A DNA stretch of 63,960 bases, filler included, from Psammoneis japonica (Eukaryota), in NCBI GenBank assembly GCA_008632985.1. It is 7 parts of 7 records of this genome, joined end to end, with 100 filler letters (N's around TTAATTAATTAA, not from the genome) between each part and the next. Parts side by side here need not be neighbours in the genome. Positions count along the whole stretch, not along the records: positions 61,286 to 62,528 come from QPGO01000036.1; 6 more parts are not named here. The stretch is one strand, 5' to 3'. Below, in pieces: positions 22,641 through 63,960 of this stretch. A program made the translations under genes and the position numbers. The notes under the pieces are model-generated. The model was given only the letters and a program-made list of their open reading frames with translations. It had not been told where the DNA came from and made no database searches. Position 1 is the stretch's first letter. Every line of letters starts with the position of its first letter.

Positions 22641-22740
22641 NNNNNNNNNNNNNNNNNNNNNNNNNNNNNNNNNNNNNNNNNNNNTTAATTAATTAANNNN
22701 NNNNNNNNNNNNNNNNNNNNNNNNNNNNNNNNNNNNNNNN
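22641..22740. other. Artificial contig linker N44-TTAATTAATTAA-N44 (same at 49867-49966, 53184-53283, 55220-55319, 61186-61285, 62529-62628)
   Basis: Identical 100-nt structure occurs six times; the 12-mer has stops in all six frames. Confidence 0.98.
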
Positions 22741-38196: not shown

Positions 38197-38372
38197 CTTG
38201 CACAAGGCCATGGGTGGTCCTGTGGAGCAGTCAAGTTGGTCACGCGGAGGCCATGGGTGATGGCATGGAGTGATCAAGTTGGTTGCACAGAGCCATGGGT
38301 GGTCATGCGGCGCAATCAAAGGTGGTCGCACAGGAGGCCATGGGTGGTTGTGTGGAGCCATGGGTGGTCATG
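38197..38372. repeat. Degenerate ~40-bp tandem repeat (gccatgggtggtc..ggagcagtcaagttggtc), with a further copy at ~38800
   Basis: ccatgggtg recurs at ~38208, 38252, 38293, 38338, 38358 and 38803. Confidence 0.8.
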
Positions 38373-41189
38373 CTGAGCAATCAAGATGCGTTCTAGCCCT
38401 GTGGGTCTTTTTGTGACATTTGCCCTCAGAATTCTGCGTGCAAGCTCTGCGCAGTTTGCACTCTGGTGGTCAATGCACACGCATTTGTTGTTGACATCAA
38501 ATGAACGACCAAGTTTGTGGCACATGCACCCCTGTTCACACTCAAAGTTTTGGACAATCTGCCTGCCCTGTGCCATTCTTTAGATGTTTGAGAATGGCAC
38601 AGAAGAAAAAATGTCAAAAGTTGTTGAATGGATCATCTCCCAAAAATTGTGCCATCAAATGACACAAAATTTTGCCAAAATCACGTAGAAATGTGTGTGT
38701 GTGACACACAACGTAATTCAAAAAGCCATTGACATCACAGTTCAGCAGTGCAAGGTCCCACCTGAACCTGGAATGTGTCTCAAGGTGGTTGCTGTGTGGA
38801 GGCCATGGGTGGTTGCATGGAGCAGTCAAGTTGGTCAGGGGACCATCGTCTGCAGCATTCTTCATCTCTAATTTTCCTGCATGATTTCTGTGTGACAAAC
38901 AAAATTCTGCTCTGGCACAAAATGGCACATTTCACGTGCCAGTGATTGATTCTTTGTGGCTGCCCACTGCTTGCAACAAACTCATTTCTTGCTCCAAGCA
39001 GAGCAGNNNNNNNNNNNNNNNNNNAATTCTCCCTGCCATGATTTCTGTGTGACAAACAAAATTCTGCTCTGGCACAAAATGGCACATTTCACGTGCCAGT
39101 GATTGATTCTTTGTGGCTGCCCACTGCTTGCAACAAACTCATTTCTTGCTCCAAGCAGAGCAGAGCAAGCATTGACCCTTCAACCACCGGACTTGAGCAA
39201 ATCTCCAGGGGTGAACATTTGCTTGATTACGTCACAAATGCGTTGACAGCAATGTTTTCAGATGTGAGCAATGGACAATTTGCACGATTTTGTTTTGGAG
39301 TGTGCATTCTCCAAAAGCTCGGGGGGGGGGGGGGGGCATTCTTGCAATTTAGAAAGCAGGAGCTAAATCTCAACCTTTGACAATGACATTTGTGGTGAGT
39401 TGCCATCACAACAGAGCAGCAAATGCCGCACCCTTGGAGTGGAGATTTGCTTGTGACAAGCAAATGCACCTGTGGCGTGTTTCATGCAGATCACACATGA
39501 TGTGACATTTTGTGTTGTGTTCATTGCACCATCACATGAATGCATGACATGCCACAATTTGTCAAGTGGAGCAAATCTCCACCCATTGCAGCCAAGCCCC
39601 ACTTTCTCCCCTTTTGAATGACTTCTCAACCTCATTCTCTTCTACAAGCTCCCACTTTCAATCCAACCATGCCTTGCTGCCAACTGCTTTCTTGCCCTGC
39701 ACAAGACCCATCTGACCTCTCCATGCTGTGCCAGTTGGTGCTGGTGCCTTCCTCTGCCACATCTCAGGTGCTCTTGTTGCACACCTCTTGCAGCTGCTTT
39801 CACTGCTGGTCCACTTAGATCTGGCCATTTCAGCATTGGCATTCATTGCAGCTTGGACTTCCTCATCCATGCCATCCATTCCAAAACAGAGTGCTGTCTC
39901 TCCCCAGATGCACCCCCCACCCAAGCTGTGGTTCTTCTTGATCTTGTGAGCAAGCTCAGCAAAGAAGCCTCCCACAACATTTGCCACCATGTCCTCTCCT
40001 CCTCCCTTGACACTGCCCCTCATCTCCTTTTCAGCCTTGCATGTCAAGAGCCCAAAATGTCAGTTGGTGTCATGACCAGCACCAATGCCAGTGGCTCTTC
40101 TTCCTGCAACACAAAGGGTTTGTTCAAAGCTGCTCCCTTGCCCCCACTTTGCCAGCCTCATCCTGGCTTGTGCCCTCATCCCACTTGGCCAAGAACTGCA
40201 GCTCCACCCCCCTCCCCACTCTCAATCTGCTGCCTCCTCCTGCCTTGATGACATTTGCATTTTCCCCCCTCATTCCATCATCACTTGGCACTTCTCTGCG
40301 ATTGTCACCCAATGGCTCTTTCTCTTTCTCAATGGCTTGATTTGCTCTCTGTGTGATGCTGCCCTTGCCACCCCCACTCCCACCCTCTCTGACAATCTGC
40401 CCAACTTCCACACCTCCTCCTGCTGCTCTCACTCTTCCCAACAAGCTGCTGATGTTGATGACCTCAGCACCACACAGGCTTGTCTCACCTCCTCTCTTCC
40501 AGTTGCTTCCCTTGCTCCTGAGCACATCAAGAAACTGTGCCCTCCCCACAAACACCCTCCTCTGCTTCCCAGCACTCATGACACTGCCCCACTGCCCTCC
40601 ACCTCCTCCTTCTCCCATCCAATGCTTGGTCAAAGATCTTCAAAGGCCCTTTCAAAATGTTGCCCAGGCACTGCTGCTGCAACTTTGCCAGTTCTGCCAA
40701 ATCCCTCACGTCTTTTGCACTCCATTGATGCTCTGCACCCATCCCTGCAGCCAGGCCCCAATGTTGGAGCATCCAGCATGAGCAGAAAACAACACAAGAA
40801 ACCCAGAGACAGATCTGTTTCCTGATGTGGTGGATCAGATGACACTTTGAAAGTGAGTGTGCATTTGTGGCCCATCTTGCCAATCTCATTTTGTCTTGCT
40901 CTTTGGGGAAGTGAATCATTTGGTTTCCACAAATTGCATTGTGGTGCAACCAGGCACCCTTTGTGCCATGAGATCAAAGTTGTTGAGAGCTTCCAGGCAA
41001 CAACCGCAGCTGCCATGGCAACCAGAACAAGTGCAACAAGCAAACCTCAGAGGATTCCCTTTTGGCAACATTGTTTTGACAGCATTCAGTCCAAAGAGTC
41101 AACAGCACCACATTCAGTGCATGTGGTGCCAACCTCCATTGCATCATCCAAATTGGGAAACCTGCATCATGAGTTGCAGAGGAGGAGAG

Positions 41190-44100
41190 AAAATGAGTGC
41201 TAAAGGCTGAGGACATGACCAAGGCAGGGGTGGCAGAGGCCAGAAGTCTTGCCATGACAAGAACAAGAAGACTGACCCCAAGAAGAGCTTCAAGCTGGAA
41301 ATGAAGTTTTGTTGGTGATTGATGAACAGCAACTCGTGCAATTTGATGTTGAAGAAATCAAGGAAAAGATCAACTGCACGCAGAAGGAATGTGATCAAGG
41401 TGTGCATCTGGCAGGTCCCTGGAAGACATGGCAAGCATGATGTTCACTGGTGAGAGTCCAACTCTCTGGCCTGGTGATGGCAATGACAGCAGTGTCAGCA
41501 GAGAGTCAGGTGAAGATTGCCAGATTGAGACAAGCAAAAGGGCCAGACAAGAAAGGCAACTGGAATGTGAGCACAAGATCCAGTTGCAAGACTGTGGCAA
41601 GAAAGTGAAAAGCTCAAAGAAAACAAGAGTGCCGCTGCATTTGTGGTGATCCCAGATGGTGACTGTTCCAAGTTGATGAAGCAGAGAGTGCAACCTGACC
41701 CCAGTCATCAGAGGATCAGAGATGACCCAATCAAGCTGGTCAAGCTGATCCAGTCACTTGTGTTCAACTCCACAAGAGGTTGAGTCCCATTTCACACACT
41801 TGCCAATTGCCAACAAGTCCATGATGCCACACTGGAAGTCAAACAGCTGGAGGACAAGTCACTGAATGACTGCCTGTCAAGATTAAAAATCAACAAGATG
41901 CCAAAAGCAATGGTCTTGGCAGCAAGATGTTGGGTGGATTTGTCAAGAATGCCAAGGAGTGCAAGGAAGGACTGCACTGCAACAGCAAATGAGAAAGCAT
42001 TGGACTTCACCTTGCAAGTCATGATGCAGAAACATGCATTGTGCCTCATTTCCATGCATTGGTGCTGTTTTTCTTGCACAAGTGCAGTGTGAGATTTTGA
42101 GTTGAATGCAGTTTGGGATCTCACAACTTTGGCTCATGGGTGTGCATGGGGCATGCCAAGTGTGCTGTCATCACTGTTGCCACAATTCTGCCTGGGTTTC
42201 TCTGCCACACCTTTTGCATGTTTTTCTGTGCAAGCTCTGGTGGCACAGATGTCACCCTTCTCTGACAATGTGACAATGAGTGGGTGCCACAGATTTGTGA
42301 TGTTAATCTTGGCCAGCTGCCACGCATCCCTGCCACATTGTGTTGGTGTGCTGCGGGTGTGGGTTGGGTTGTTGCCAGAGTTGCAGGGTGGAAACACAGC
42401 AGCATTGTGCAAAAGCATGTGGCTTTGGTGCTGAGTTCAATTTTTGCACCATGTGAAAACTGAACTTCACAACACACACCTTTGCCCAATGAGAACAAGA
42501 AGACTGGCCCCAAGAAAAGCTTCAAACTGGAAATGAAGTTTTGCCCATCATTGATGTGACATTTGAAGATGTCAAGGAAAAGAACAACCATGCACAGAAG
42601 GAGTGTGATCAAGGCATGCATCTGAAAAGGTCTCTAGAAGACATGGCATGTGTGACCTTTTTTGGTAAAAAGCCTGCACTGGCAATGACAATGACAGCAG
42701 CATGCCAAAGGATGATGACAAAGATTGCCAGAAGACAGTGAACAAGAGAGCTCAAGAGGAGACACAGCTCAAATGTGAGGCAACATCAAGTTGCGTGACT
42801 GCAATGAGAAAGTCAAGAAGCTCAAAGAAAACAAGAGCACAAAATTTGCAGCAATCCTGGATGGTTGCTGTTCCAAGCCAATGAAGCAAAGAGTGCGAGC
42901 TGATCCCTCACATGTGAAGATCAGAGATGACCCAATCAAGCTGCTGAAGCTAATCCAGTCCCCCTCATGCTCAACTCCATGGAAGTCAACTGCCTTTCCA
43001 CACTTGCCAAGTCACTGAAGCACATGCTGGAAGTGATGCAATTGGAGGATGAGTCACTGAACAACTGCCTGTCAAGATTTGAGAATCAAAGAGAGGCTGC
43101 AAGCAAAAGTCTTGGCAGTGAGATGCCAGATGTGTTTGTCAAGAACACCAAGCATTGCAAGGACTGCACTGGCACAGTGGATGAGAATGCATTGAAGGAC
43201 ACTGCATTTGAGACATGGACCACATGCCTGTTCTTGGAGAACAGTGATGACTGCTGCCACAAGAGCATCAAGAAGAGCCTTGTGAGAGACTGCAGCCTGG
43301 GAAGGGATTTGCACCCAAAGACCCCAGGGAAGGCAATGGATGTGCCACTGAACCATCCAAAAGACAATGATCTGCACACAAGGGACAGGAGCAAGAAGAA
43401 CAATGAACACCCAAATGACAAATTAGAGGACACGGGCAATGACAAGACCAAGAACCTGCAAGACAAGAATCATGCACAGAGTGACAAAGTGACATGAGGA
43501 TGAGATCCTGGCAGAAGGACTTGCGCAACAAGCCCAGCAGGAAACCAGATGCTGGAGGACTGAGTCATGCACAGAGAAACAAAACAATTGGTCAACAAGC
43601 AGCAACAATGCCAGCATTGATGCCTGCAGGTCAAGCCCATCTGCAAGCTCCAGCAGGAGAGACATTGCATGGCATGGGATCCAGTTAGATGAACAGGCCA
43701 AAGAAGGGCCAGAAACAAGTTTGAACCAAGAAGCTGATGTTGGCATCAAGTCAGATCAGATCATTCTCAATCTGCCCTTGACATGGCAGCAAGCCAGAAA
43801 CTGGTGCACAATGTGCAACCGGCAAGGATCAAGATTGATCTTTCCACTGACACCAAGACTGCACCATGCCAGGATGGGGTGACATGAAGCTTGGGCCACA
43901 GAATGCAGCAGTCAACATCCTCAGTCTCAAGGATGTGAAGAGCAAGCACTGCATGGTGCATGACAACCGAGTGGTGTGCATGAGTTCCATGTCACTGTGT
44001 TCAAAGTCAATGATTGGGCTGCATGCCTCAACACCAAGTCAGCAATTCTTTGACCATGCAGAAGATGCATCTCCAAGAAGATGAGTTGCATGTGAGCATG

Positions 44101-46190
44101 TTGTCAAAGGACAAGAAGGCTGCAAAGAAGATCAGCACAAAGCACAGGAGTGCATTGGGAACTGTTGTTCCAACTGTAAAACAGAGTGTGAATGGCTGCA
44201 CCAAACAAGAGGTGGCAAACACCAAGGAACATTGAAACTCTGATGCAAGGCTGGAACACCCCACAAAGGCAATTTCAAGCCTTTCATGCCATCCCATCAG
44301 GTGAAAACCCATCCATTCTGCCTGAGGATGTGGGTAGAATGGCGGCCATGTGGGGTCCACCAACAGATGCACTCAAAGGCAAGACCAAGCTTGCACACCA
44401 TTTTCACGAGAGAAATGACATCATTGTCACACCACCTGAGATTGCAAGAGGCAGAGAGATGGGTGAACCTCTGCATTGATGTCATGAAGTGTGTGGTGTG
44501 TCGACACTGTGTGCAGTTGACAAGATGATGAAGTGCCAATCAAGTGAGTGAAGTCCAAAAAGCATGATCACATTTACAAAGCCTTGGATGTGATTCTCGG
44601 ACAGCACAACATGGCCCCATTCAAGACAGATTTTGTCAAGTGTGATCCTGAGCTCAAAGACATGCTAGGGAAGTTGCAGATGGTGTGAATCTAGAGCTTG
44701 TCTCTGGCACCAATGCCAAGGACCACATTCCTGAAGTTGAGCAAAGCACTCTGATCATCGGGGAGCAAATCCAAGCCATCATGCATCACCACCACACAAG
44801 TTGATGTGCAAGCAAGCCATGATCAAGAACACTGTCATGTCAAATGTGTGCATGCAAAAGGAAGGGATTTCTGACACTTGCAGTCCTCTCACTGCTGTGC
44901 AATGAAGAAACCCTTGACTTGTGCAACAAACACTTTCAGCTCAGATTTGGGGAACTTGTTGTTTCCAACATCAAGAATGACAAGATGATCACTGTGGAAG
45001 CACATGGTGTTGACAGTGTCTGCCTGCAATCACATTTTGATTTGCCCAAGGGCGTCACCATGCTGTGAACCTGCACAGGATGGGCAAGTCATTGAATTCC
45101 CACAAGTGCACCTCTGTTCCCTTGGCCAACATGCACATTGCAGCTGTCAAGGAGATGGCCATGGGACAAGGCATCAAGGAATTCAAGTTCACAGGGGAAA
45201 TGCAAAGACAATCCACGTGATGTTGATTGGACTGCAGGATGAGTGGACAACTGAAAACAAAAGCAACAGCAATGATGAAAGTGACAATGAAACAAAATCC
45301 CAGAAAGAGAAAACATGCAAACTGCATGACTGAGTCAGAAGCTAAAGATTGCAAAGCTAAGATGACCTGACTCAGATGATTAATGCAAAGAAGCAAATGA
45401 GACATTGGCCAATGAAAGGTCCAGTCCCAGCCAACAGCACAAAGCTCATGAGGAGCAAGAAGTTGAAGCAAGCAAAAACTGCAACAATGAAAGTCCAAAG
45501 AGGTGATGATTCTCTGGATGATGACAGATGGGAAGGACAATGATTGGAGGAAAAAGCAAGAACCACGCCTGGTCAAACCCTGAGAAGCAGTGCAAGCTTG
45601 AGTGCAGCCATCATTTGCATGCCAACATGAGTCCTGATTCAAAGGACAACATCAAATGTGCAAAGCAGAGATGGCAATTGCACTTGCACACTTCATGTGT
45701 GAGGTCGATGACCAACTCTGAAGTGGAGAGGGTGCATGCTCAGCCAGCAACATTTGCTCCATGAAGGCCTCAAAGCATTGGCCTTTGCCCAGAAGAGGCA
45801 TGATGCCTCAGAGAAAGAGACAACCAAGTGTGCTTTGGTGACTCCAACTTCCAACTGAAAGGACCAGCCAAGGCCATGCCAGCCTTGATGTTCCTCGCCA
45901 AGAAACGAGATGGTTGCATGAAAGGACAAATTGTCTGCAATGGCAAACCAACCCAAGAGTGGCCAGATGAAGATGAGTCAGCCAGCCCCACTGCATCCCT
46001 TGAGGGGAGGACATTGATGATGGAATCATTGATGCCCATGAAGGACATGATGAAATGAGTGCTGCATTCCAAATGCATTTGCGCACAGATTGTGATGGTG
46101 CCGGAGCCTGGAGAAGGTGAGGACCACATCAGAGGCTGCAACACAGTGGTGTTTACTTCCTTTTGTCTGATTTGTGACAATTGATGCAAT
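41190..46190 (+). mobile_element. Degenerate diatom-type copia element: two gag copies (~41190-42000 and ~42490-43500), then protease/integrase/RT remnants, truncated in RT
   Basis: NILSLKDVK, EDV..MWGP..ALKGKT, LCIDVM, LMFLAKKRDGCMKGQIVCNGKPTQEW..SASPTASLE (cf. ..KRDG.IKGR.VYNGKPTREW..SPT). Confidence 0.8.
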
Positions 46191-48625
46191 GCAAGTTTCT
46201 CTTTCCTTTTTTTTTACTCTTGCATGCAAGTGTGTTCATGCAGTGTTCAATTCACACATTTTGCATGGATCTTTTTGCTTTTTTTTTGGCTTAATTTTGT
46301 CAATTGATCCAAATGCATCTAGTTTTTGATTTCAGTGCATCACATTTTGACAGCATTGTTGCACTTGTTTTGATGCATTGTCTTTGACAGTGGTTTTCAA
46401 TGGCTCCTCCCCACACATGCACCACCACAGTGGCTGGCATCCCCTCTGCACCCAAGTCACCCCCCTGCGCACTTGCCTCATTGTTTGATCCAGCACTTTC
46501 CAGAATTTCAGTGCATGGCTCTCTACCTTGTTTTTAGTGCATGTTCTACATGCACAATGTTCTGCCTGTTTCATGACAGTCCATGTCCTTTCCCCAAAAT
46601 GCATTCGACCAGAGCATGTGCTGTCATGATTCACGCACTTTCTACATGAATCAACAACTGACTTTTGGCTGTGGTGGTCAACGACTTTACCCCGTCCCAC
46701 GATGAGGTCACCCACCCTTCCTTCCAATTTCCTGATGAGTGTGATTTTGATGAAATGGAACATTTTGCCAATGGTTTTGGAATGGAGTTGTTTGGACCCA
46801 AGCTCAAAAGCATGATTTCAACGCTTGCATCCAAAAACCAGTTTTTGGAGACAACAAATTGGTCCCCCTCTCCAGAGTTCCTCACTCTTCCCTTCCCTTT
46901 GTCACAAGCTAAAGTTGTGTCACATTCCACATGTCGCAGAAGTTGTCCGCACCAACAGTGTTGTCAGGAAAACTCTTGGATGCCCTGACATTTGGTCCCA
47001 CATCATGACCATGGTTGGTCCATGAAGAAATCCAGCACACTGAAAGGTGAGTGTGTTTTTCAATGTCAAAATTTGGAGGAAGCTCTCTCCATTTCTCTAA
47101 AATGCCCGGAGAGACAGAACAAGAAGAGGAGCACCTTGTTTTGCTTTGCCGCAACATCAAGGCAATGGCAGAATTTGTGCACATGGTCGATGGGGACAAC
47201 CCAATGATCCTGTCTCTGGTGAGCCTTGTTTCCATTTTTCATGGTCAAAAATCTCCAAGCATTGATCAACAACCAAGCCCACAACCTTCACGGTGCATGC
47301 TTTGTCACTGACATCATTGTGCACTGCATCCAGTGCAAACCCAAGGACATGGGCTGTTGGTTCATGCAGATTTTTCACCATGTCAACACCCAAAAGGAAT
47401 GGCTCATGTTTGTCAATGGCTTTCTGGTCATGTGCAATTCCAACGATCCAGGTTCCCAGGAGGATGAGATCAAGGGGTTCCTGGAGACAAAATCAGTGAC
47501 ATTGAGAACTCTGTGATGACAGCCAGTGATTCCCTTGCAAGTTGGGAGGCATGCAAAGAAAAAATCAATTCCATGTTGAATCATGAATTTGGGAAGCACT
47601 GTCCTGAGGAGCAACCTGGCACATGACCTGGGTGCAGCAAGCAGCAAAATGCTTTGTTGCAGAATGTGTGATCAGAGGGCTGACTGCCCAGAAGATGACA
47701 ACAAATGAGAGTGCAAATCCCAAATTCAAAATGAGGAGGATCCGCAAAGATGGCACCTGTTTGAATGATGGCAAGCACCCCCCTCCCCCCCCTTTGCCTT
47801 CATTGCCTGCCTGCATCTGTTGTCTCATGGATCCTTTCCCCCCTGATTGTACATGCCCCACCAGAGCCTTCCTTGACCATCCCCAACAAGAAGGCCAAGA
47901 CTGCCATCACACTCAAACCAAGTCCCTCCTTTGTCGTCCAGTGATGTGCCATTGTCCAGGGAGGTGCACCGCACTCTCACAACGGACCTTCTGACATTGT
48001 CAGAAATCATGGATCCAGGAAAACCTTCTTCCCCCCCCAATGTCCTCCCTCCAAATGGCATTTTTCTTGGTTGGGTGTTTCTGCAAATCACTTGGTTGTT
48101 TTGTCTCCTCCCCCTGACACCAGGACATGTTGTGGCTGGACAAGTCTGCCATTTGCCAGCACTTTGACCTGTCCAAGTGTTGATCTGTTGCCTCAGGGGA
48201 AGTTGTCACCCATCTGTCATGCCTGCACATCATCGACAAGGCCACCAACACTGAGTGTGTGCTGCATCATTCCACCACTGACTTTCACCCAGCAGACAAT
48301 TTGCAAGAAAACTGGCACATGTTCTCCAACAAAACTCCCTTGAGCAATCCCACCACCACCTCTTCAATTCTGGAGATGCTGCACAACTAGAGCCAGTCAA
48401 CCTGGAAGAACAGCTGCTCATGCACCAATGGATGTCATCAGAGACCAGGACCAAAGAGCATGGTTGGAATGGAATGGAGCACAAACTGTGTGAGAATGCT
48501 GAGACAATTGCTGCACCCACACATTCGACCATGCATTCCGTGGTCCCTGTTCTGGACAAAACCTGTTCACCTTCTCTCCCTCTGGTCAGCATCTGTGCAA
48601 GGGATGTGGATTCACAGAGCATCAA

Positions 48626-49866
48626 ATGGTGGAGTGCATTGACACCAACCCAAACATGTGCAAGGAATGCACCAGCCAAGTTGCCATGTCAGACATGTCT
48701 GACTTGGTTCCCAGTGGACTTGTTGCTGACAATGAATCTCACTTGTTGGAGAAATCCCACAGTGACAATGACATTGGCAAATCATTGGTTCCCAATGGAC
48801 TTGTTGCTGACAATAATTCAAACTCATTGTCTGGGGAATCTGACAACAATGATGACAGTGATGAATCCTTGGTGAATGATGGGCTTGTGGCAGACAATGA
48901 ACTAAACTCATTGTTGGAGGAATCCTCCATCAACAAATCTGCCATTGACAAAGTTGTTGATGGGTTCAAAGAATCTGAGTGCTGCCTGCCCATTGTTGCA
49001 GGTGAATCAGCAGTCATCCCATCACTGGAACAAAATTTGGATGATGAGGAAATGTGCAATGATCCCATGGACAATCAAGCAAAACCACCAGACCTTTCAA
49101 AAGTGCAAAATTTGGATGTGGAGGCATGCGTGGACACAACCATGTTGCAAGTCTCACATTCGCGCATTGACTCATTCCATTTTCTGATTGTGTCATTTGA
49201 CTCATGTCATGATTCTGGAACCATCTAATGCAAAACTTTTGTGTCACTTTTTTCATCCTCACAAGCAATGATGGAGGTGCAAAAATCCTGTGGCTGTGCA
49301 CGACAAGGCCTGTCAATGCGGGAGAGCTGTCCTTGGATGAGCTTTGTTCAGACTGTGGTTTGAAGGCTGTGCAAGTTGTGAAGGACCTTTGCACCAACGC
49401 CTCTGTTGAGGCATGCATCCTCTCTCTGCAGGACAGAAGTGCCACACACCACCCAAATTGCAACATTCATGCCAAGGATTTTGTTGATCATGTGAAGTTG
49501 CAATTTGGTGGTGAGATTGATTTTAAGAAGAGTGGATTTGTTCAAATTTGCATGGACTGCTGCTGGATGCAATGAGGGGAGTGGCAGCAAATGTCATTTG
49601 GAGAATGCTTTTTCCACAAAAACCTCAAAGAGATGATGAAATCTTTGTTGCATCCAAAGCTTGAAAGGTGCCACATCACAGTCCCATGCAACCTGTGGTC
49701 CCTTGCCCAAGCTGTGCGCAGCTGGAGCACACAGAAGAATGTGTGCTGGTGCTTGGTGTGACCGAGGAGATGGCATGTAACAAAGTGACAATTTACCAGG
49801 CATCCCTTGAAATGGAGAGCAGGACAGGGGTGATTGGCTTGGAAAACCATCCAATCAGGAAGCCCT
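48626..49866 (+). pseudogene. Degenerate ORF with three ~82-bp GLVADNE repeats, followed by a possibly Mutator-like transposase remnant
   Basis: Repeats at ~48706, 48787 and 48871. HAKDFVDHVKLQFGGEIDFKK loosely resembles the MuDR pre-catalytic region. Confidence 0.3.
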
Positions 49867-49966
49867 NNNNNNNNNNNNNNNNNNNNNNNNNNNNNNNNNN
49901 NNNNNNNNNNTTAATTAATTAANNNNNNNNNNNNNNNNNNNNNNNNNNNNNNNNNNNNNNNNNNNN

Positions 49967-51266: not shown

Positions 51267-52801
51267 CTAAAAAGTTAAACTGCCCAGGGCCCTCTCTCTG
51301 TTAAAGAGCAGCCAGCGGTGGCCTCTGTCCAAGGTCAGAAATCTCACTTCATCATTGCTGGATGAGAACCGAGAACCAAGAAAGTCCAAGCCCCCCATCA
51401 GCGGCTGAGCTGTCTTCCATTTTGTGCCGCACAAAGAAGTTTTGACTGGCCTTTCGTGCACAGCATGAGTGCCATTTGCGTGACCCATGCGTTGTGCGAC
51501 AACCAAAATGATCACACAGTCAAGCTGGTGCATCGGGGGGGGGGGCGAATTTGGAATCCCCCACCGGCTGATGAGCAGATCACTGTCTGGGAAAAAGGTG
51601 TGTGAGGAGTGTGAGCACGCAAATTTGTTTGTGACAAATCAGTCCAACTTGTCACAAATCACACCTGTTCGTGACAAATGGATGTGATTTGAAACAACAA
51701 ACGTCTTTTGCTTCCCAATGAACATCCAAGTTTGCAAATCAAGAGCAGGCCAACTTGGCAAATTTGGCACGAATCAGCAAGTTGATGCCAACAAAGCACT
51801 CCATTTGATGTTTGCAGTCAACTGCTGACTGAGAATTGATTGGCTGACTGATGTTTTTAAATGACTGATTTGTGATGTGCTGCTGCAACTCATTTTCAAT
51901 CTGTCGTCTAAAATGCAGTTCTACAGTGGGGCACTGCCATGTGATCTGCCATCGAACAATGCAGCTGCTGCCATTTGTTTTTTGTCCACTGAGCTGCTGT
52001 CAACCACCAAGCTGCCATCAACTCCAGTTTGCGTGTCTTTGCACAGTTTGCCATGTGGTCTCCCTCATCATCCAGTTCATTGAGTTCTTCTTCCACTTCT
52101 TTTCTGTGGTTTTCCAGAGTCATCCTCCCACTGTGCAGCTGTCCTCCCATTGGCCAAGCCACCCATTCTCAACCTCTTGTTTGATGTCCATGCAATCCTT
52201 CCTTGAAGAAGTTGTTTGCCCTTGGTGACCCCCTTTGCTCTTTCTTGGCATCTTTCATCACTGCTTCCCACTGCCTGCACCTTCCTCCATTGCATTTGAG
52301 TGGCCAAACATGAAGTGCTTGAGCCATCTCATGTGCACTGTCTTTTTTTTATGAGTTCCTTGCTGGGTGGTCCCCTGTGGTGGTCGAGCTCATTCATGAC
52401 TTCTGTCAAAGCAAACAGCCAGTCCTTTGTTTTCTGGAGGGAGAAGCACCAGAGCCAGAACTCAATGTCAAAGAAGAGGATCAGACTTGGGGATTCAAAA
52501 AGTCTGAGTTGGGAGTGAATGGCTGAGGGTGGGCTGGGGAACAGAGGATTGGCTGTGAAATGAATCAGGTTGAGGGAGAGCTTTTGCCACCCAGATGATC
52601 AGTGTTGATGCCATGTTTTGAGCAGGATGTGATGAGAAAAGCACATCAGTTTCTAAAAGTTGTGGTTCTCCATTGTCAGTCTGCAAGTTTGGGGTGCTGC
52701 TTTTTCCTCTCTTTGCTGAACCATCAACTCTGTGGCACACCCAGTGCAGATGCTGGCAGCTCAAATTGATTCTCACTTTTGGTTTGAACAGCCCCAATTT
52801 T

Positions 52802-52832
<31 letters not shown>

Positions 52833-53183
52833 GCCAGACAGCAGAGTGATGAGAAGACTGGAGCTGAAACAAACACTGAACTGCTGCCCAACCTGAAGGG
52901 GAAAGAGGGCGGGAGGGTGCTTCAGACAGCCAAGTTGCCTTTCCCACATGATTTCTCATGGGTGGCATGCCTGCACACACACCCCTCATGGAGGAGTCAC
53001 CAGCCCATCTCCCCTGCCTCCATTCTCCTCCATTCCAGTTTTGCACAGGTGTGGCAAGTGGGTGAGGGAGCTTCTCTTCTTGACAAGAAACAGTCTGGCT
53101 GTTGTGTGCTGTGTGTCAACAGAATCCAGCAATCTGCTTGGCTCCAGTGCTCTCACTGTGTGTGCATGGCAGACAACAGAGTG
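51267..53183. mobile_element. Unclassified TA/CG-depleted repeat, preceded by hairpin gggacaaaaaattttgtccc (51239-51258); contains (CT)14 at 52804-52831
   Basis: Abrupt switch from TA-rich to TA-free sequence. Confidence 0.55.
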
Positions 53184-53283
53184 NNNNNNNNNNNNNNNNN
53201 NNNNNNNNNNNNNNNNNNNNNNNNNNNTTAATTAATTAANNNNNNNNNNNNNNNNNNNNNNNNNNNNNNNNNNNNNNNNNNNN

Positions 53284-55219: not shown

Positions 55220-55319
55220 NNNNNNNNNNNNNNNNNNNNNNNNNNNNNNNNNNNNNNNNNNNNTTAATTAATTAANNNNNNNNNNNNNNNNNNNNNNNNN
55301 NNNNNNNNNNNNNNNNNNN

Positions 55320-58060
55320 AAGTCTCTTTGTTGTGTTGTCTGGACAAGCAGTCAGACCAGGGACGCGGTTGTTGCTCAACAAATGACATGCCACAAACTC
55401 TGGGTTTGTCCAGCATTTAGTGCAATGAGGGCAATGCGCGAACATGCCGTTTTTTGATTTCTGACCGTGCTTGTGCCTTGGGCATCGAAGCTGCTGATTG
55501 CTGACCATTTTAGGCACAGCACGACAGGCAAGATTAACAGTGCAATCATGATCAAAAGTCTCTATGATGGACAGTCGAGTGCAATCCTCGCTGCACATCA
55601 ACCCAGTTGTGCAGATCCGACTGGTCAGTTTGGATGGTGTTCTTTTACCATCACGCCTAAAATCTCCATTGTCAGAATGCAGATTGTCTCTTGCTGTGTT
55701 TGTGTCTTCAAACCATGCCTGAATGTGACCGTGCACCGAGAGTCTGCCTTGTTCTTCCATTGCAGCTATGAAAGCGGAGGGTCTCCCTGTGTAGAATTCA
55801 AAATCTTCTCTGGGTGAATTCCTTTTTAAGTCCCATCCTGTCACTTCTTCCATGACGATTTCCAACAACATTTCGAATGCAAAAGCCATGACACCCGGGT
55901 GCTCCACACGAAGCTCGTTTCTTGCCTTGGCCTTTTCGGTCAATTCTTCATCCGACATTTCTGTCACATCTCTGCCTTCGTCGATGAGCATGTCCGCATA
56001 AATTTGAACTAAAAAGGAGCTAGCATCATCGGGGCTTGTCGTTAAAAATGCTCCAGGTTGTCCAAAGTGGTGTTGGCAGGTTTCAGCATTTCTTCTCATT
56101 TTTTTTGCTGCTTCATTTGCATGTGGAATAGATGCCGACACCACATCCACTGCACTTAAGAAACGATGTCCCAATGCGCAATTCCTGCATTCACCGGTCT
56201 GTCTGTCACATGTGGCACGGTCGACATCGTCTTGTGTCAGTTCATTTGAGAATTGTCTGGCTTGATTTTTGTCTCTTACTTTCCATCCAGCACTGTGCAC
56301 CATTCGTTGCTTCACAGTCAGATTGCACAGGGTCAGAACAAAGAGTTGCTTGTGGAAATGGGGCTGAGAAATGCGGGCCAAGTGATCTGCGCAATGTGCT
56401 AGATTTGTGCAGTCGCGAGACTCCCGTCTTCTTTCATTCTTGTTTCATTAACACCGCCACGCCCACAAGGAAATTGCAGCAAGCAAGCATTTGCCAGGTT
56501 GTCATCCTTAAAGTCACTGACTGATTCTTTCAAAAGGTCAGCTTTGAATTCAATGTCAAAACCGCTTGCAGCTGCATCGTGCACCAAGTCTTTGAAGCTG
56601 TCTAAATTGCGTTGTCCACCAGTTGTTGAAGAAACGGTGCCATCGGGGAAACAAACACTGCAGGACTCCGTGGTTTCAATGTTTGCATTTTCGCTTTCGT
56701 CTGAACTGCTGTTGTCCACTAAAACTGGATTCTGCAAATTACTTCGCACTTCCTCTAGATCGATGTCTTGATTCATCCAATTCTTGTGGTGATGGACAAG
56801 CCATTCTAGTGCTCTCATCACATGGTGAGTCCTGATTTTGTTCTTTTGTCTGGCCATTCGCCTTTGCTCTGGTGTCATTTTGCCGGATGCCAACACAACC
56901 ACATTTTGATGAAGGTTCAACACGTCAAAGTGCATGATGGTGCGGGCGATGCTCTTTGTGTTTATCTTGCAATGGGAAAGACTGCCTTGCAGTTTCTTCT
57001 GTTTGCCGCCGACAAAACTGAAGCAGCAGCCACATGTTTTCACAGGTGTCAACAAAGCCAGTTCTGCTTCGGCAAGACACGATAATTCAGGTGGTGGTGT
57101 TCCAAAACAGCAATTGTTTGCTGTTGCGCATGGAGGCATAGAAGCAGTGCAGAGACTTCTTTTACAAGGCCTGCAACAAGTGAATCCTTCAGACCTTCTG
57201 TTGTCGTTCGGAACAATGCATCGAGCTCTTGGCGAAAGTGACAGGTCGGAAATCCATCAGCAATCCCGTGGAACATGGTCGTCATCGATGCGATGACAAT
57301 CGTGCAGGTCTTCCGACACTTGGTTCCATTCAGATGGAGTTAACAGGTGTCTGGCTTCATTCAATCTGTTGACAGAAAGTCGAGCAGTCTGAGACGGTTT
57401 TAACAATCTGTCACACACCAAACAAACCCAAGGGACGCACTCGTTTCCATTCCTGCAACAAAGCTTCTCAAAACGTCTGTTCACATTGTCTCGGTGCCTG
57501 GTGTTGCTGTCATCCACAAGACAGCTTGTAACGGCAGGCTCACACTGCGCAAAGATGAGTTGAACCAACAACGCAGCAACAGGTGCACACCAGATAACAC
57601 GACGACCCATGAGACTTGCAATGAGAATGATCTGAGTAAAGTCAATATGATCAATAGATGGCAGATGATCCCACCTGCAACTGGTGTTCCCAGTCACTGC
57701 AGGGTCCACTTCCAGTGTTTTCTGGACTCAGCAGACGAGTGTGTGTAACAAATCTTCAGTGTGTCAAGAGTGCAATGAACAAAAATGAATGTGAAATGAC
57801 AAATCTGCAACCGGTGTTTCCCGGTCTCTGCAGACTCTGCGACCAGTGTGTTCTGGTCCCCGCAGATGTTGTCTCAGCTGCAACTGGTGATGCTTTGTGT
57901 CGAGATGGCTGGAGAGTCTTCCTTTGTAAAAGTTCAGATCTCATGAAAAATGAGGGTTGAAGCAAACTTCCGTGCATGATTGACGGACCCGACACGTTGT
58001 AGATCGTTCGTCTCGATTTGCTTGACACGTCATCGTTCGCTCGTGCGTTCTGCATTGGGA
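55320..58060 (-). mobile_element. Helitron-like Rep-helicase gene, N-terminal part, frameshifted and TA-depleted
   Basis: VCLVCD, PPPELSCL.EAE, VMRALEWL, LQFPCGRGG (=FPYG), FGQPGAFLTTSPDD and EEQGRLSVHGHIQAW (HUH motif). Confidence 0.85.
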
Positions 58061-58599
58061 TGCACTGCTGACAGCAGCGGCATCACACCGGTGAGGTTAT
58101 GAACGTCAGCGGAAACACATCTTGTGGAAGTTCAATGTGCGATGATGCATCTCGTAGTTGAAGTCGGTTCCACCCACTACGACTGTACGACGTTTGTACG
58201 ACCACGACGCCTCACATCTCGATCCACTGCCAAGTGCAACAGATGTGTGTTGTTGCAGTGTATCCTTGTGATCGGCACGTTCCTTTCATCCCACTTGTGA
58301 ATCATGTCGTCTTGCAGTGCATGTACTGACATTGAACCATTCGAGTGAAAAGATTCCAAATTTTAGAAAGATTTCCAGCCACACCTTTCTTTCGTACAAT
58401 TTTACGTAGCCCATCACACTGGTCCTTCTTTCCCACGTCTCACAGTGGAAATTGTGCGTGACATGAGTGACGCACCTGCACGACCGTCACTGGGCCTACA
58501 CGACCGCTGCTGTGTTAGCTCTTCGTGGGAGCTCAGTGACTGGTGACCTTGTTTTTGGCTCACAATTTTGTGCTGATCAACAACGTAAGACTTTGTAAG

Positions 58600-59469
58600 A
58601 TGGCCCATAAAACGCGAGGTTCTGCCAAGAAGTTGGACGCTTCTCCAACCAAGAAACAGCAGTCTCCCGTCAAGTTTTCTGCTTCCCTCATGAAAAAAAT
58701 TACCCCTGCCAAGACCGTTGGTCTCAATGATGAAGACATGAAGGCCGAAGATTTGTTGGCCAAGACGGGCATCAAGGTTGCGAAGGTGTCTGGTGGCACA
58801 GCAAGCGACACTGCCAGCAAGGATGCTAATTTACGAGTGGCCAAGATCACCGAAGGCAACAAGCAAGGCTTGGCATTCCGTTTGGAGCCCAGGGGGACAG
58901 GCAACCCCTCCGGTGCATGGGCAGAGAAAGTGTTTTTTGATGCCATGCGCTCAGGCAAGTCTTGGGTTGCCAATTCAGGGTTTGTGCCGCACACCAAGCA
59001 GTGGTGCCATGACAATGTGTCGATGAAGAATGGAAGGGATTGCTCCATTCGTCTCTTCGTGATTTACATCGAGGAGACCCCGTCCGATGAACAAGTCAAG
59101 ATGTTGGCCAAGTGCGTTGCTGCCAAGTTGAGCAACGACCCGGACAACAACACTGCCGCTCACATTGAGGACGACTGCATCTGGATCCAGGATGGTGTGT
59201 GGGCCGATGTGATTGGCAACGACCAGGCTTTAACGGAACTCCGTAAGGAGGGTGGTGACTTCCACTTAGGATGGCACGAGCAGCACAAGAACTTGCTTCA
59301 CAGTTGCCTTCGAACGGGAACCTTGCCCATGGATTTCTGCCGCGTGATTGGTGCTCCAGCAGACGAAGCGGCTGAGGATCTTGATGAGGAAGATGGGGTG
59401 TTGCACGATGACCAGATGTCTGATGACGAGGAGAACGACTTGCTGCTTTGCGACACCGACGAGAACTGA
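58600..59469 (+). CDS. Unknown protein divergent from the Helitron Rep gene; probable Helitron accessory gene, partly TA-depleted
   Basis: Open 289-codon frame with a basic N-terminus, acidic tail and only one Tyr. Confidence 0.55.
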   Translation: MAHKTRGSAKKLDASPTKKQQSPVKFSASLMKKITPAKTVGLNDEDMKAEDLLAKTGIKVAKVSGGTASDTASKDANLRVAKITEGNKQGLAFRLEPRGTGNPSGAWAEKVFFDAMRSGKSWVANSGFVPHTKQWCHDNVSMKNGRDCSIRLFVIYIEETPSDEQVKMLAKCVAAKLSNDPDNNTAAHIEDDCIWIQDGVWADVIGNDQALTELRKEGGDFHLGWHEQHKNLLHSCLRTGTLPMDFCRVIGAPADEAAEDLDEEDGVLHDDQMSDDEENDLLLCDTDEN

Positions 59470-60585
59470 GAAGTTTTTCCCCGGTCTGGCCTCCGCTCTT
59501 TAGTGCGTTGTACAGCATGTAAATGTTTAGTCCATTTAATCAAACATTTTTTTATTTACTTGACAAGTGAGACTTGCATTGCGCGCGACTGTGGCAAATC
59601 GTGCACATTTAAATTATGCATTTGTCAGTCATTGAATGCTGCATTCGCAGCCGGCTCGTTTTCTGCATGATTTCAAAATCAATTGGCATTCGTGTCTTAA
59701 TCATTGTGTGTGTCTCTTTTCTGACAGTGATTTCAAAATGTCATGTGTTTGGCCTGCCTGACTTGCATTTCCGGTTGTTTCCGCAAAGTCTGCTTTTCAA
59801 ACTTTGTGCCAGTGCACACAATTCACCAAATGAGACTGCGTCACCAATGCACGGCCTCAGCATGGTAGTGAGTTAGTGATGAAGCCATCCCACTAAGAGA
59901 CCCAGCCCGGTGTTCATGCCTCAGACCCATCTCCTCTGGAGACCAGTCCACTGTGGCACCAGTGTCGCGGTTGATCTCATTGGGTCACTTTTTGCTGCTC
60001 CTTGCCGATTGTAGGGTGCCGATTGTGAGGTGCGCGGNNNNNNNNNNNNNNNNNNNNNNNNNNNNNNNNNNNNNNNNNNNNNNNNNNNNNNNNNNNNNNN
60101 NNNNNNNNNNNNNNNNNNNNNNNNNNNNNNNNNNNNNNNNNNNNNNNNNNNNNNNNNNNNNNNNNNNNNNNNNNNNNNNNNNNNNNNNNNNNNNNNNNNN
60201 NNNNNNNNNNNNNNNNNNNNNNNNNNNNNNNNNNNNNNNNNNNNNNNNNNNNNNNNNNNNNNNNNNNNNNNNNNNNNNNNNNNNNNNNNNNNNNNNNNNN
60301 NNNNNNNNNNNNNNNNNNNNNNNNNNNNNNNNNNNNNNNNTGGGGTGCAGGGCACAGCAATTGCAGGGTGCGGTGAGAACCGCACAACTCACCGGCACCA
60401 TGAAAATGTGATGTGTCAACACGGCAAGGGATGCTGATGAAGTGGTCCCACATGAGGACCCAGCACACTGTGCCTTTCCCTGTCGTGTGTGTTTTGAGTG
60501 TGCAGCAGCATTGCCGCATGCTGCAGTTGTGGCCGTTGCTGCCGGAGGCTGGGAAAATTTTCTTTTTTTTTGAACAAATCCCCCC

Positions 60586-60869
60586 AACATGTGATGCGTG
60601 CAAATCCTGCATGTCGTTCCTCATGGCCCCTGTCAATGGCTTGTTCGTTCGTGTGTGCAACACACATGCGGAGTGCAACAGGGAAAAGATTCCTCTGTGC
60701 GGTGTGCAGCACAGCATTGGTTTAACATGTGACACAGCACTGTGCTGTGCGTGCAAATCCTGCAGGTCGTTCCTCACAACCCCTGTCAATGGCTCATTCG
60801 TTCATGCACACAAGACACACACGGAGTGCAACAGGGAAAAGATTCATGCGGTGTGCCACAGCATTGGTT
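60586..60869. repeat. Two-copy ~150-bp tandem repeat
   Basis: gcgtgcaaatcctgca..gagtgcaacagggaaaagattc..cacagcattggtt at 60596 and 60749. Confidence 0.9.
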
Positions 60870-61285
60870 GATGCACGACACTGGATGAAAAAAAAAACAG
60901 CACCATAAGATGTGCCATGAGTCACCCCAATCAGTCCGGCAAAGACAACACCACCCTTGCGTTGCTTGGGAAAACGGTCGCTGTGAAAACAAGCTCCAAT
61001 TGTGGGGGTGGCTTCATTCACACCTGCAAGGCTCAGACGCCTTCTTCGTCGAGAGTTGCGGCACTGGCACATTTGACAAACAGAGAACCCGCAGCTAACG
61101 AAGGCAAGTGGTCTGCTGAAAAGATGATGCATCGAGCCAACAAAAAGGCTGCAAAGATCGAAAGTCTAGAAGAACTGCCTGCACANNNNNNNNNNNNNNN
61201 NNNNNNNNNNNNNNNNNNNNNNNNNNNNNTTAATTAATTAANNNNNNNNNNNNNNNNNNNNNNNNNNNNNNNNNNNNNNNNNNNN

Positions 61286-62528
61286 CCAAATTTGTTGTGA
61301 TTGCTGCTGCTTGTTGTCATGCAGACAATCTTGTGACATGCTCTTCTTTGCCTTTTTGCAACCCCGAGGCAGGCCCCAGACAACCAGCTGTGAAGGGGCG
61401 CGCTCTTCATTTTCTTTGCATGAATGAGTGGTTTCACCACACCAGCGTCATTTGAGCAAGCTGCAAAAAGGCATTCTCAAAAATCAAAAAGACAAACAAA
61501 CACCCAATTGTTAAAATTTCTTTGCCACTTTTGATGACAACCCCAACCCCAACCCCAATTTAAGAGCAACAAGTGAGCTGAAGAAAAAACAAATTTTAAT
61601 TTTAAAACGATTGGTTGACACTGAGTCTTGCACCCACAAATTAAAAAAAACCAATTGCAAGTGCAGGTCAAAATTTAAAAAATTAATTTTTGCATCACTG
61701 AAAAATGGGTTAAAACAACAAAAAACAAAGAAATTCCATCGACCTCGCACTGCTGAACTGTGACATCAACAGTTTTTTGGATCGCGTCGCATGTCGCGCA
61801 CGTGCATTTCCACGTGTGACATTCTACGAAATTGTTTCATGCTCCCTGTTTTGCAAAGCCAAAGGCTTTCTATTTTCAACATTTGTGAGAATGAAAATGC
61901 ACTGGGTGTGTTCTTTAATGTCTGAAGAACACACCCGGGCAAACTGTCAATGGTGTGCTGCAAGCATGAAGGAGGAGATGCATTCGCAAAATTGCCTCTT
62001 TTTCTGTTGGCGATCACACCCATTTTCATTGCAGCACAAATTTGCTGCAGAGCTTGCACGCAGAATTCTGTGGGCCCAATGTCACACGGAGTCCCACTTG
62101 GGACTGGAACCCATCTGCAGCTGCCTTGCAGTGGGAGCAGAGCAACAGCACGAGCTGTGCACACAGCTGACTGGTGGGTGCAAGCAGCGCTGAAACCATC
62201 TCCACTCTGCTTTGATGAGTGTCCAGTTTTTTTTTTGAGGTGGATGGCACTTTTTTCCTGGGGTCAGCATGCACCGCAGTAAAATCTTGCTGCTTCTGCT
62301 GAAAGAAAATCACCCCTGTCCTTCAATGATGCTTGTTTGAACAGAATCAAGCCAGCTCTGGTTTTTGCTGCCAAACCAGCAACTTTGTCAGCCAGCTGGT
62401 TGTGATGGCATGCTTTTGCATGGCGCAACCATCCCAGCCTCAGAGCAAGTGTTGGGAGGCAAGTGCACAAGCACCTTGGAGCGGTGGCCAACAATGCAGC
62501 TGCTGCACTTGCAGTTGTTGCCCACATC
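61286..62528. mobile_element. Unclassified TA-depleted repeat contig
   Basis: Remaining TA is almost only in TTAA-type runs. Confidence 0.5.
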
Positions 62529-62628
62529 NNNNNNNNNNNNNNNNNNNNNNNNNNNNNNNNNNNNNNNNNNNNTTAATTAATTAANNNNNNNNNNNNNNNN
62601 NNNNNNNNNNNNNNNNNNNNNNNNNNNN

Positions 62629-63960
62629 GGAGTAGAGTCGTCCCTTGACAGCAGGGAACTTGAGCCAAGGGGCTTTCTTCCGGACTTTCCGTTCGGATGG
62701 TGTGCAGACATTGCGGACCCCTGCCTGGGTCATCACTCTGATGGTGTTCTCAGCAGCCGTCAGGCCAATGTTCCACCTTTTAGAGAGTGTCTCGGGCGTG
62801 ACAGTTGATGCACGACTCAAGGTCGACAGTGCATGCACCCGTTTCCGCTCGGCACAATCCAGGTGGACATCCAGGTCATGCCGGTCGTGTGGCCCGTCTC
62901 CCTCGGTGTCGTTGTGGGAGACATTCACCTGAGCAACCATGCGGCGATGCAATGAATTGTCGTCATCAGTGTCCACAATGACGCTCTCGTCATGACAGGA
63001 CATTTGGTGTGAATGAATGGAAGCAACACACCTGGTCACATTCATTGTCGTCAACCATCCGCCCGACTTTGCTGATCCTTGGCGCACACTGGCACATGCA
63101 CGCGCTTCCTCCTTTTGCGCCATGGCATCAGCAGAAGGCTCCCATCTCGGGGGTGATGTGAGTTCCAGCCGGGGGAGGTTCTCCAGATCCTCATTTGTTG
63201 GCTCGTGTGAATCAAAGACAGAAGCAACGCCTCTTGTTCGCAGTGGCACCCTGATCTTCAAGTCAGGGAAAGCAATGGAGTGCGCGCCAGTCGGATCAAA
63301 CTGGCAAGGGGTGTCGTGGACAATCAGCCCATTTGCTCGCAGTTGGTTGGGGCACAGAAGGGTGTTGGTCATCTTGTCCCCAAAAAACATGGCCTCGTGG
63401 ACTGGCAGCAAGCACGGTTGTCCATCAGTTGGATCAACCCACACGGCAGCAGCCGCGCAAACAGGAGTGTTTTCCATTGGCGCGTGCTCTTCGGAGTGGG
63501 GGTGCACCACGACAGTTCTGTCGATGTCAGAGCACATCACAAATTGGACCCAACAGCACACGTGTCAGCGTGCGAGTCTAAATCAGTGGTGGCTTCGTCA
63601 TCTGAATTTCCAGCAGATGACAAAGAGACACAATCACATCCTTTGAGAATCACCCAGACAAACAAACAGTGCCAGCAGGTTTAGCGACATTTGGTTCTGT
63701 GCCTTTCAGTGCTGGCGCAACTGTTCATTCCTCATTCTGAGGTTTCTCATGTGCGCTGCATCCAAACTGGGTGCCTGCATTGGCGGCAGGTTCGTCAGGC
63801 TCGTCGGAGTCTTTCGGTGCATCAGCAGGTTGAGCAGCAGGCTCGGCAACAGCCGCTTTCTTTACAGCGAGAGTTTCGGCATCGACCGACTCAGCTTCCA
63901 AGGACACAGCAGCAGCTTTGCATTTCTTTTTGGCCTTCTTGGCATCGCGGAGCTTTGGAC
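62629..63960 (-). mobile_element. Diatom-type copia gag end / protease / pre-integrase region, TA-erased but CpG-rich
   Basis: AANAGTQFG, DLDSHADTC, FFGDKMTNTLLCPNQLRANG, ELTSPPRWEP, TPETLSKRWNIGL. Confidence 0.85.

Follow-up and report, generated by a model that had tools for sequence, protein, structure and literature searches.

Survival of TpA in the TpA-depleted DNA of Psammoneis japonica depends on the bases that flank it

Parts of the genome of the eukaryote Psammoneis japonica (assembly GCA_008632985.1) have lost nearly all of their TpA (TA) dinucleotides, and the few that are left stand mostly beside particular bases, which raises the question of what decides whether a TA survives. 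The window analyzed here is a stretch of 63,960 nucleotides, filler included, made up of seven parts of this genome joined end to end; its content is eukaryotic and includes a Copia reverse transcriptase, a Helitron remnant, an AAA ATPase, a sugar transporter, and an ankyrin protein. Over the whole window the observed/expected ratio (o/e) is 0.40 for TA and 1.43 to 1.44 for CA/TG, and the TA depletion is blockwise, with sharp edges. With a depleted block defined by a TA o/e below 0.25 in windows of 300 bp, six blocks were delimited (26,499 non-N bases) and were compared with the normal regions (36,612 bases). TA survival in these blocks depends on sequence context, this dependence is short in range and additive between the two flanks, and the change ran from TA to TG and CA. 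The DNA concerned, repeated or silent, has probably been worked over by a mutator acting at the DNA level, which would turn TpA into TpG or CpA on either strand at a rate set by the flanks. Throughout, Y stands for pyrimidine and R for purine, and TA sites are classed by their flanks as YTAR, RTAY, or mixed (RTAR, YTAY).

The depleted blocks retain 146 TA, and their neighbors are unevenly distributed on both the 5' side (TTA 68, CTA 46, GTA 20, ATA 12) and the 3' side (TAA 77, TAG 39, TAC 23, TAT 7). The normal regions hold about 1501 to 1502 TA, including 320 TTA, 345 TAA, and 84 TTAA. TTAA makes up 35 of the 146 survivors, compared with 84 of 1501 normal TA (odds ratio 5.3, P = 1e-11), and RTAY makes up 3 of 146, compared with 436 of 1501. 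When the ten strand-symmetric tetramer classes were counted in survivors and in normal TA, chi-square was 174.6 (df 9, P = 7e-33); the contexts of surviving TA therefore differ from the background, as a first-pass annotation of this DNA had expected. That annotation had singled out positions 61490 to 61730, where TA was said to persist solely as TTAA, and all eight TA there are TTAA (61512, 61561, 61597, 61603, 61642, 61676, 61684, and 61711). Base frequencies in this stretch (T 0.24, A 0.44) give TTAA a probability of 0.105 per site, and AT-rich 240-bp windows of the normal regions have TTAA at 31 of 415 TA. The other survivors that it listed were likewise found in protected contexts, as TTAA at 13356, 36948, 37396, 41884, and 42304 and as CTAA at 13681 and 41201, and the five TA of 62629 to 63960 (GTAG, TTAG, CTAA, TTAG, and TTAC) include TTA or TAA in four cases. 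Leaving 61490 to 61730 out does not remove the bias (TTAA 27 of 138 versus 84 of 1501, P = 1e-7; RTAY 3 of 138). The six blocks, together with the A-rich stretch inside the last of them, are given below; no strand is assigned to any of these features.

13367..14551, no strand: depleted block; two surviving TA, both YTAR
33245..49766, no strand: large old block with TA and CG erased; 63 surviving TA (38 YTAR, 23 mixed, 2 RTAY)
51377..53098, no strand: TA- and CG-depleted block; five surviving TA (3 YTAR, 0 RTAY)
55435..58028, no strand: depleted block with CG largely kept, covering the Helitron remnant; 37 surviving TA (17 YTAR, 19 mixed, 1 RTAY)
58661..59351, no strand: depleted block with CG kept; seven surviving TA (0 RTAY)
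59679..63960, no strand: depleted block containing 61490 to 61730; 32 surviving TA (24 YTAR, of which 17 TTAA; 0 RTAY)
61490..61730, no strand: A-rich stretch; 8 TA (all TTAA), 25 CA, 15 TG

The bias is seen in all six blocks, with RTAY numbering 0, 2, 0, 1, 0, and 0 in the order given.

Survival was expressed as an index in which the TA share of each flank pair, taken from the normal regions, is scaled to the x[YR]y sites of the depleted blocks. The premise is that the process interconverts only TA, CG, TG, and CA, so that the x[YR]y total of each flank pair is conserved. The density of YR dinucleotides (TA+TG+CA+CG) per base is 0.2427 in depleted and 0.2437 in normal DNA, and such an unchanged density is expected if transitions turned TA and CG into TG and CA. 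A 5' pyrimidine and a 3' purine are the protective flanks: with 139 of the 146 survivors in the calculation (sites near N runs or ends were left out), the index is 0.010 when neither is present (RTAY), 0.097 with one (mixed), and 0.432 with both (YTAR). RTAY keeps TA at 3 of 1570 YR sites in the depleted blocks, compared with 434 of 2165 in the normal regions. The survival indices of single tetramers are as follows.

TTAA: 0.63, the best protected tetramer
CTAA: 0.47
TTAG: 0.41
TTAC: 0.29
CTAG: 0.24
GTAA: 0.14
GTAG: 0.10
ATAA: 0.08
All contexts below ATAA: at most 0.06, with GTAC at 0.01 and ATAC and GTAT at 0

Taken one flank at a time, the index falls from TTA (0.33) through CTA (0.17) and GTA (0.06) to ATA (0.05) on the 5' side and from TAA (0.28) through TAG (0.18) and TAC (0.07) to TAT (0.03) on the 3' side. 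The first-pass annotation had proposed that a flanking T (5') or A (3') protects, which would correspond to a preference for VTA or TAB on the edited strand. Both bases strongly favor survival, and TTAA is the best protected of all; however, C on the 5' side and G on the 3' side protect as well, and the proposed motif is too simple, as the split lies between cold YTAR and hot RTAY. The two flanks are independent of each other among survivors (P = 0.14), TTAA being expected about 36 times (68 x 77 / 146) and seen 35 times. Hazards are roughly additive, the mixed contexts having 2.33 against a predicted 2.72.

The effect of the flanks has a short reach. At position -1 (immediately before the T, reading either strand 5' to 3'), the index is 0.29 for T, 0.17 for C, 0.06 for G, and 0.04 for A; T at -2 gives 0.23 compared with about 0.09 for the other bases, T at -3 gives 0.185, and from position 4 the profile is flat. 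The second position acts within each class: with 0, 1, and 2 Ts at -2, the index is 0.24, 0.60, and 0.78 for YTAR and 0.04, 0.12, and 0.37 for mixed sites. AT content at positions 4 to 15 had no protective effect on TA survival, and together with the effect of T at -2 and -3 this indicates that a protected site is T-rich on its 5' side and A-rich on its 3' side over about 6 bp, rather than simply AT-rich. A preference that is strong at -1, present at -2 and -3, and gone by position 4 bears out the enzyme-like character suggested in the first-pass annotation. As a negative control, CG survival was computed over the same 16 contexts and ranged only from 0.23 to 0.40; this nearly flat profile means that the method by itself creates no context effect and that CG decay is a different process.

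In the depleted blocks, o/e is 0.08 for TA, 0.30 for CG, 1.72 for CA, and 1.80 for TG, compared with 0.61 for TA, 0.98 for CG, and 1.17 for CA/TG in the rest of the window. TA loss is uncoupled from CG loss: the depleted DNA includes D1 (7.4 kb; TA lost, CG largely kept) and D2 (16 kb; both lost). Counted per 500 bp, 62751 to 63960 and 33245 to 34100 have 0 to 2 TA and 17 to 30 CG, which is TA loss without CG loss, and in 39500 to 45000 both are lost, with 0 to 4 CG. In D1 there are 22 TTAA compared with 13.5 expected; in D2, where CG is gone, TTAA falls to 8 compared with 33.5 expected. Protection is thus slower loss, not immunity.

The direction of the change can be read from the Helitron remnant, since its relatives include copies that are not TA-erased.

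55320..57493, minus strand: Helitron remnant with DUF6570 and Helitron_like_N, a frameshift near 56390, and almost no tyrosine

Relatives of the remnant have a length of about 1900 residues, and its match to them spans residues 8 to about 740; its two translated segments contain 0 and 0.6% Tyr. For the Helitron open reading frame (ORF), a word-index search gave two homologues of nearly the full length and none longer, and a full HMMER search returned 701 homologues; 16 related metagenome loci provided a baseline of 26.3 kb of homologous coding DNA; with TA o/e values of 0.37 to 0.90 these loci are not TA-erased, and they were therefore used as a baseline and not as a replicate of the flank rule. 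Against this baseline, the remnant has lost its RTAY sites altogether (0 observed, 23.3 expected) and most of its RTAR (7 and 22.7) and YTAY (5 and 25.0) sites, and it has kept YTAR nearly in full (18 and 21.2). There are 31 dinucleotides at which half or more of the intact relatives have TA. The window shows TG at 15 of these, CA at 10, TA at 1, and something else at 5; because 25 of the 31 are now TG or CA, the direction is from TA to TG/CA, that is, from A:T to G:C. The protein alignment gives a similar picture, the 14 columns with a Tyr majority in close homologues being occupied in the window by Cys (7), His (3), Tyr (1), and other residues (3); the Tyr columns of distant homologues give a weak count (Cys 5, His 4). 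Four public Helitron proteins (P0016, P0051, P0107, and P0024) have no or almost no Tyr and raised Cys+His; P0016 has 866 residues and P0051 has 1355, neither with a single Tyr. In a MAFFT alignment, they show Cys 20, His 14, and Tyr 6 at 24 consensus Tyr columns. Their appearance is that of proteins predicted from TA-erased copies, where the vanished TAA and TAG stops would account for the long open frames.

Other copies of the affected DNA carry traces of the same process. X1 contigs were compared with 55320 to 61185 at 80% likeness, and 255 of the 283 differences are transitions. The 40 of these 283 differences that are listed include at least 12 double differences of CA versus TG, at 8 RTAY, 2 YTAY, 2 RTAR, and 0 YTAR contexts. 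Such a double difference is what an ancestral site leaves when one copy was changed on one strand and the other copy on the opposite strand, although some of the 12 could be former CG sites. An adjacent double transition off TA, outside the TA rule, is seen at 56019 to 56020, where the window has GC and the X1 contigs have AT (GAGCTAG versus GAATTAG). The summed word depth of the X1 contigs is about 550 to 2960 over the Helitron part of 55320 to 58260 and about 160 to 320 at 58652 to 59631, and a depth of 66 belongs to a single contig; the Helitron family probably has multiple copies, although word depth is no copy number.

Since survival alone is blind to the strand on which a flank acts, products were compared under two models, with CG decay assumed to be split evenly. 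In model A, the rate of TA->TG on a strand is set by the base 5' of T; in model B, it is set by the base 3' of A, which is equivalent to TA->CA being set by the base 5' of T. Model B was better than model A by 18.5 log-likelihood units in D1, 2.3 in D2, and 35.3 over all blocks, and in a block bootstrap the fraction of replicates without an advantage for B was 0.033 (D1) and 0.020 (all blocks). In D1-like simulations on normal DNA, B was favored in 0 of 25 runs when A was true and in 25 of 25 when B was true. The fitted hazards predict a Cys share at Tyr columns of about 34% under A and about 66% under B, which may be compared with the 20 Cys and 14 His of the four public proteins. Model A is rejected by this product analysis. 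Model B, by which T-A-Y would be hit faster than T-A-R on the A-to-G strand, is favored but not settled; its fitted hazards by the base 5' of T are as follows.

A: 2.09 (bootstrap interval 1.68 to 2.55)
G: 1.85 (bootstrap interval 1.59 to 2.22)
C: 0.72 (bootstrap interval 0.50 to 0.91)
T: 0.24 (bootstrap interval 0 to 0.41)

A mixture of the two models was also fitted, with a weight of 0 for A, 1 for B, and 0.5 for no strand assignment. The best weight was 0.8 to 0.9 in D1, 0.6 in D2 (interval 0.3 to 0.9), 0.7 over all blocks, and 0.6 at the direct Helitron sites. The view of the first-pass annotation that each flank protects one strand is thus borne out in part, with a fitted one-strand share of about 0.6 to 0.9 depending on the data set.

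A TpA-restricted hypermutation of integrated giant-virus and virophage DNA has been described in Bigelowiella natans (Mettrop et al., bioRxiv 10.64898/2026.01.13.699255), where deamination of A to inosine was proposed and 231 new mutations were published. The changes there are almost solely A-to-G/T-to-C, all at TpA, and give TpG or CpA according to strand; they are confined to foreign or repeat DNA, and TpA-poor, CpA+TpG-rich clusters occur across that genome. The blocks described here share this signature, in that the loss is confined to TpA, apart from a separate loss of CG in part of the blocks, and is matched by a gain of TpG and CpA; a single strand is enriched in TG as well as in CA, so that both strands have been hit. 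They differ in belonging to another lineage and in showing a long-term footprint rather than new mutations. The main text of the preprint makes no statement on the bases flanking TpA, and our literature search found no other description of TpA hypermutation or its context; the flank rule is a new property of a process known from this one 2026 preprint.

The mechanism that we consider likely is that the blocks are repeat or silent DNA in which a mutator would change A:T to G:C at TpA on either strand, at a rate set by the bases adjoining TA and more weakly by the next one or two bases out. Sites would be hot with a 5' purine (before the T) or a 3' pyrimidine (after the A) and cold with a 5' pyrimidine (T more than C) or a 3' purine (A more than G); because the two flanks add up, RTAY would be lost first, mixed sites next, and YTAR last, above all TTTAAA-like sites in which TA stands between T-rich and A-rich sequence. 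The strand on which a flank mainly acts would be the one where it follows, on the 3' side, the A changed to G, with T-A-T and T-A-C attacked faster than T-A-G and with T-A-A the slowest. The agent may be a putative polynucleotide adenine deaminase with a strict requirement for 5' T and a preference of the YAY-over-YAR type. Short range, additivity, and independence from regional composition together argue for an intrinsic preference of an enzyme that contacts TA and one or two bases on each side. Base stacking between the A and its 3' neighbor was considered as a simple explanation and dropped, because TAC is hot although the AC step stacks well.

Several observations weigh against this mechanism or against its assignment to a strand. 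A-to-G on one strand and T-to-C on the other look alike in sequence, and the whole-window index takes as its baseline mostly genic DNA instead of the true ancestors of the blocks. Among the 25 polarized Helitron sites, 15 are informative, and by hand tally 8 of them favor B and 7 favor A; at the direct Helitron sites a mixture weight of 0.5 fits as well as 0.6. The advantage of B in D2 (2.3 units) is far from the simulated median of 34 under true B. At a coarse level, depleted blocks and normal DNA have similar TG:CA ratios, so the product inference leans on the baseline and on the assumed even split of CG decay. In addition, the contexts in other copies rest on the 40 listed differences.

Some of these observations suit a duplex-level explanation, in which the enzyme would recognize a whole 4- to 6-bp site through DNA shape or symmetric binding, with RTAY preferred, and would choose the strand at random. 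Survival alone fits this and a per-strand model alike, as do the 8:7 tally with its equally good weights and the weight of 0.6 (0.3 to 0.9) in the CG-erased blocks, and protection by T at -2 and -3, a T-tract followed by an A-tract, could itself be an effect of shape. However, a weight of 0.5 is worse by 3.9 log-likelihood units in D1, where CG is kept (compared with 0.8 to 0.9), and by 5.8 over all blocks (compared with 0.7), and in both D1 and D2 CTAC has mostly become CTGC and GTAA has mostly become GCAA. We regard recognition of the duplex as possible, though unlikely.

It is more doubtful still that the T of TpA is the attacked base, by oxidation to a mispairing derivative or by amination, with the same flank rule and the motif R-T-A. 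The sequence cannot separate such a change from A-to-G, and under model B the flank would lie directly 5' of the attacked T. To our knowledge, however, no DNA enzyme converts T to C. Adenine deamination is an established chemistry of polynucleotide deaminases, and a natural ADAT2 is reported to deaminate DNA (PMC10354150).

The survivors might also be no escapees at all, their TTAA-like TA having been created later by mutation or slippage, kept by selection, or left in patches that the process did not reach. Eight of the 35 TTAA do lie in one low-complexity, A-rich stretch. Yet the bias holds without that stretch and in every block, survival is not raised by local AT content, and an unreached patch would keep RTAY too, which numbers 3 of 146. 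YTAR in the remnant (18 compared with 21.2 expected) has been retained, not newly gained, and TA regained from TG or CA would take on the contexts of those dinucleotides, in which T..A accounts for 396 of the 5814 TG+CA of the depleted blocks, about 7%. A late origin is accordingly very improbable. Least probable of all is RNA-level editing, by which an ADAR/ADAT-type enzyme would act on retroelement transcripts and the changes be fixed by reverse transcription: ADARs and fungal ADAT-based editing do favor a U at -1 (PMC4817773), but a single strand carries TG as well as CA products, a DNA transposon (the Helitron remnant) and domain-free DNA are affected, and the 3' preference of ADARs and of Fusarium is opposite to that found here, where TAG (0.18) and TAA (0.28) are protected compared with TAT (0.03) and TAC (0.07).

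If a mutator acting on A is accepted, its preferences can be set beside those of known deaminases, a comparison that the first-pass annotation had recommended for the TadA/ADAT family. The strict 5' T seen here, with TA alone lost and CA gained, is a feature of a deaminase footprint only on the premise that the editing falls on A. The engineered editor ABE3.1 is reported to prefer YAC, and ABE8e-YA (TadA-8e A48E) prefers YA motifs, with YAY over YAR (PMC12528748); if A is edited, the strict 5' T and the preference for a 3' pyrimidine over a purine form the same hierarchy. These TadA-derived editors differ in being engineered and guided by Cas9 to single-stranded DNA, a comparison that also depends on a strand assignment that is moderately supported here, and in accepting a 5' C as well, CA being a product here and not a target. 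The A-to-I mRNA editing of the fungal sexual stage, carried out by Tad2-Tad3 (PMC4817773, PMC11156358), shares with ADARs and with the present blocks a strong preference for U/T directly 5' of the edited A (85.7% U in Fusarium), but its substrate is RNA, and its preference at +1 (A/G enriched in Fusarium, 3' G for ADARs) is the reverse of the cold TAA and TAG found here (PMC4817773). Amphioxus ADAT2/3 is a natural ADAT-family enzyme that deaminates A and C in DNA, but it is reported to act on A in GAA and on C in TCG rather than at TA (PMC10354150). That a natural TadA/ADAT-like adenine deaminase edits silenced nuclear repeats, serving as a genome-defence base editor in algae of the SAR (stramenopile-alveolate-rhizarian) lineages, is offered as a tentative reading of the footprint.

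Dinucleotide-specific transitions in repeated or foreign DNA, with sharp-edged blocks of skewed dinucleotide content, are also the mark of a process of opposite chemistry. Repeat-induced point mutation (RIP) changes C:G to T:A, mostly at CpA, and creates TpA in repeats. In the blocks described here, unlike those left by RIP of ascomycetes (RIPCAL paper; PMC2621366), TpA is destroyed and CpA and TpG are gained.

A short-range, additive flank rule of about 40-fold is the first quantitative limit on the agent. It argues for an enzyme touching 4 to 6 bp and against a regional or compositional effect, and it separates the agent from ADARs, fungal mRNA editing, and the DNA activity of amphioxus ADAT2, pointing instead to a TadA-like YAY-over-YAR preference. 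For the detection of TA-erased tracts, indices should set RTAY against YTAR. The classes that have been lost show how far decay has gone, TTAA being intact where CG is kept and reduced to about a quarter where CG is gone; if the defence by a deaminase is real, the surviving YTAR:RTAY ratio would be a clock of tract exposure. For annotation, the erasure of TAA and TAG stops and of Tyr codons yields long tyrosine-free pseudo-proteins, which are already in public protein collections.

The genes of the window (AAA ATPase, sugar transporter, ankyrin protein, and pseudouridine synthase) lie in normal DNA, and the Helitron remnant is affected. The 16.5-kb block (33245 to 49766) has no recognizable Pfam domain and few repeats within the window. 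When 104 stop-to-stop ORFs taken from the blocks and from block edges were compared with Pfam, only DUF6570, which belongs to the Helitron, and a weak zinc-finger match came up. Tandem Repeats Finder gave no useful arrays for these blocks. Self-BLAST of the window gave ten repeat pairs. The best candidate for a before/after pair, 4066 to 4360 against 2153 to 1859, was tried and rejected, its differences being mixed and free of a TA signature. Another, a direct duplication of about 750 bp (41260 to 42002 and 42492 to 43194; 71% identical) inside the old erased block, was not used in this way because both copies are saturated.

Positions 1 to 1533 belong to an ORF for a Copia-type reverse transcriptase (RVT_2, E = 5e-34) that runs off the start of the window; its TA o/e is 0.37 to 0.50 and its CG content is normal, and it is not clearly mutated. 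Stretches of 44 N, 12 bases, and 44 N stand at 22641 to 22740, 49867 to 49966, 53184 to 53283, 55220 to 55319, 61186 to 61285, and 62529 to 62628, and three of these six places lie at borders between normal and depleted DNA. Further N runs (303 N at 60038 to 60340 and 18 N at 39007 to 39024) are masked or gap stretches. Outside the blocks, 2001 to 2750 carries a partial signature, with 93 to 111 CA+TG and 9 to 20 TA per 500 bp, and adjoins two direct repeats (2416 to 2722 and 2605 to 2896) that are 74% identical.

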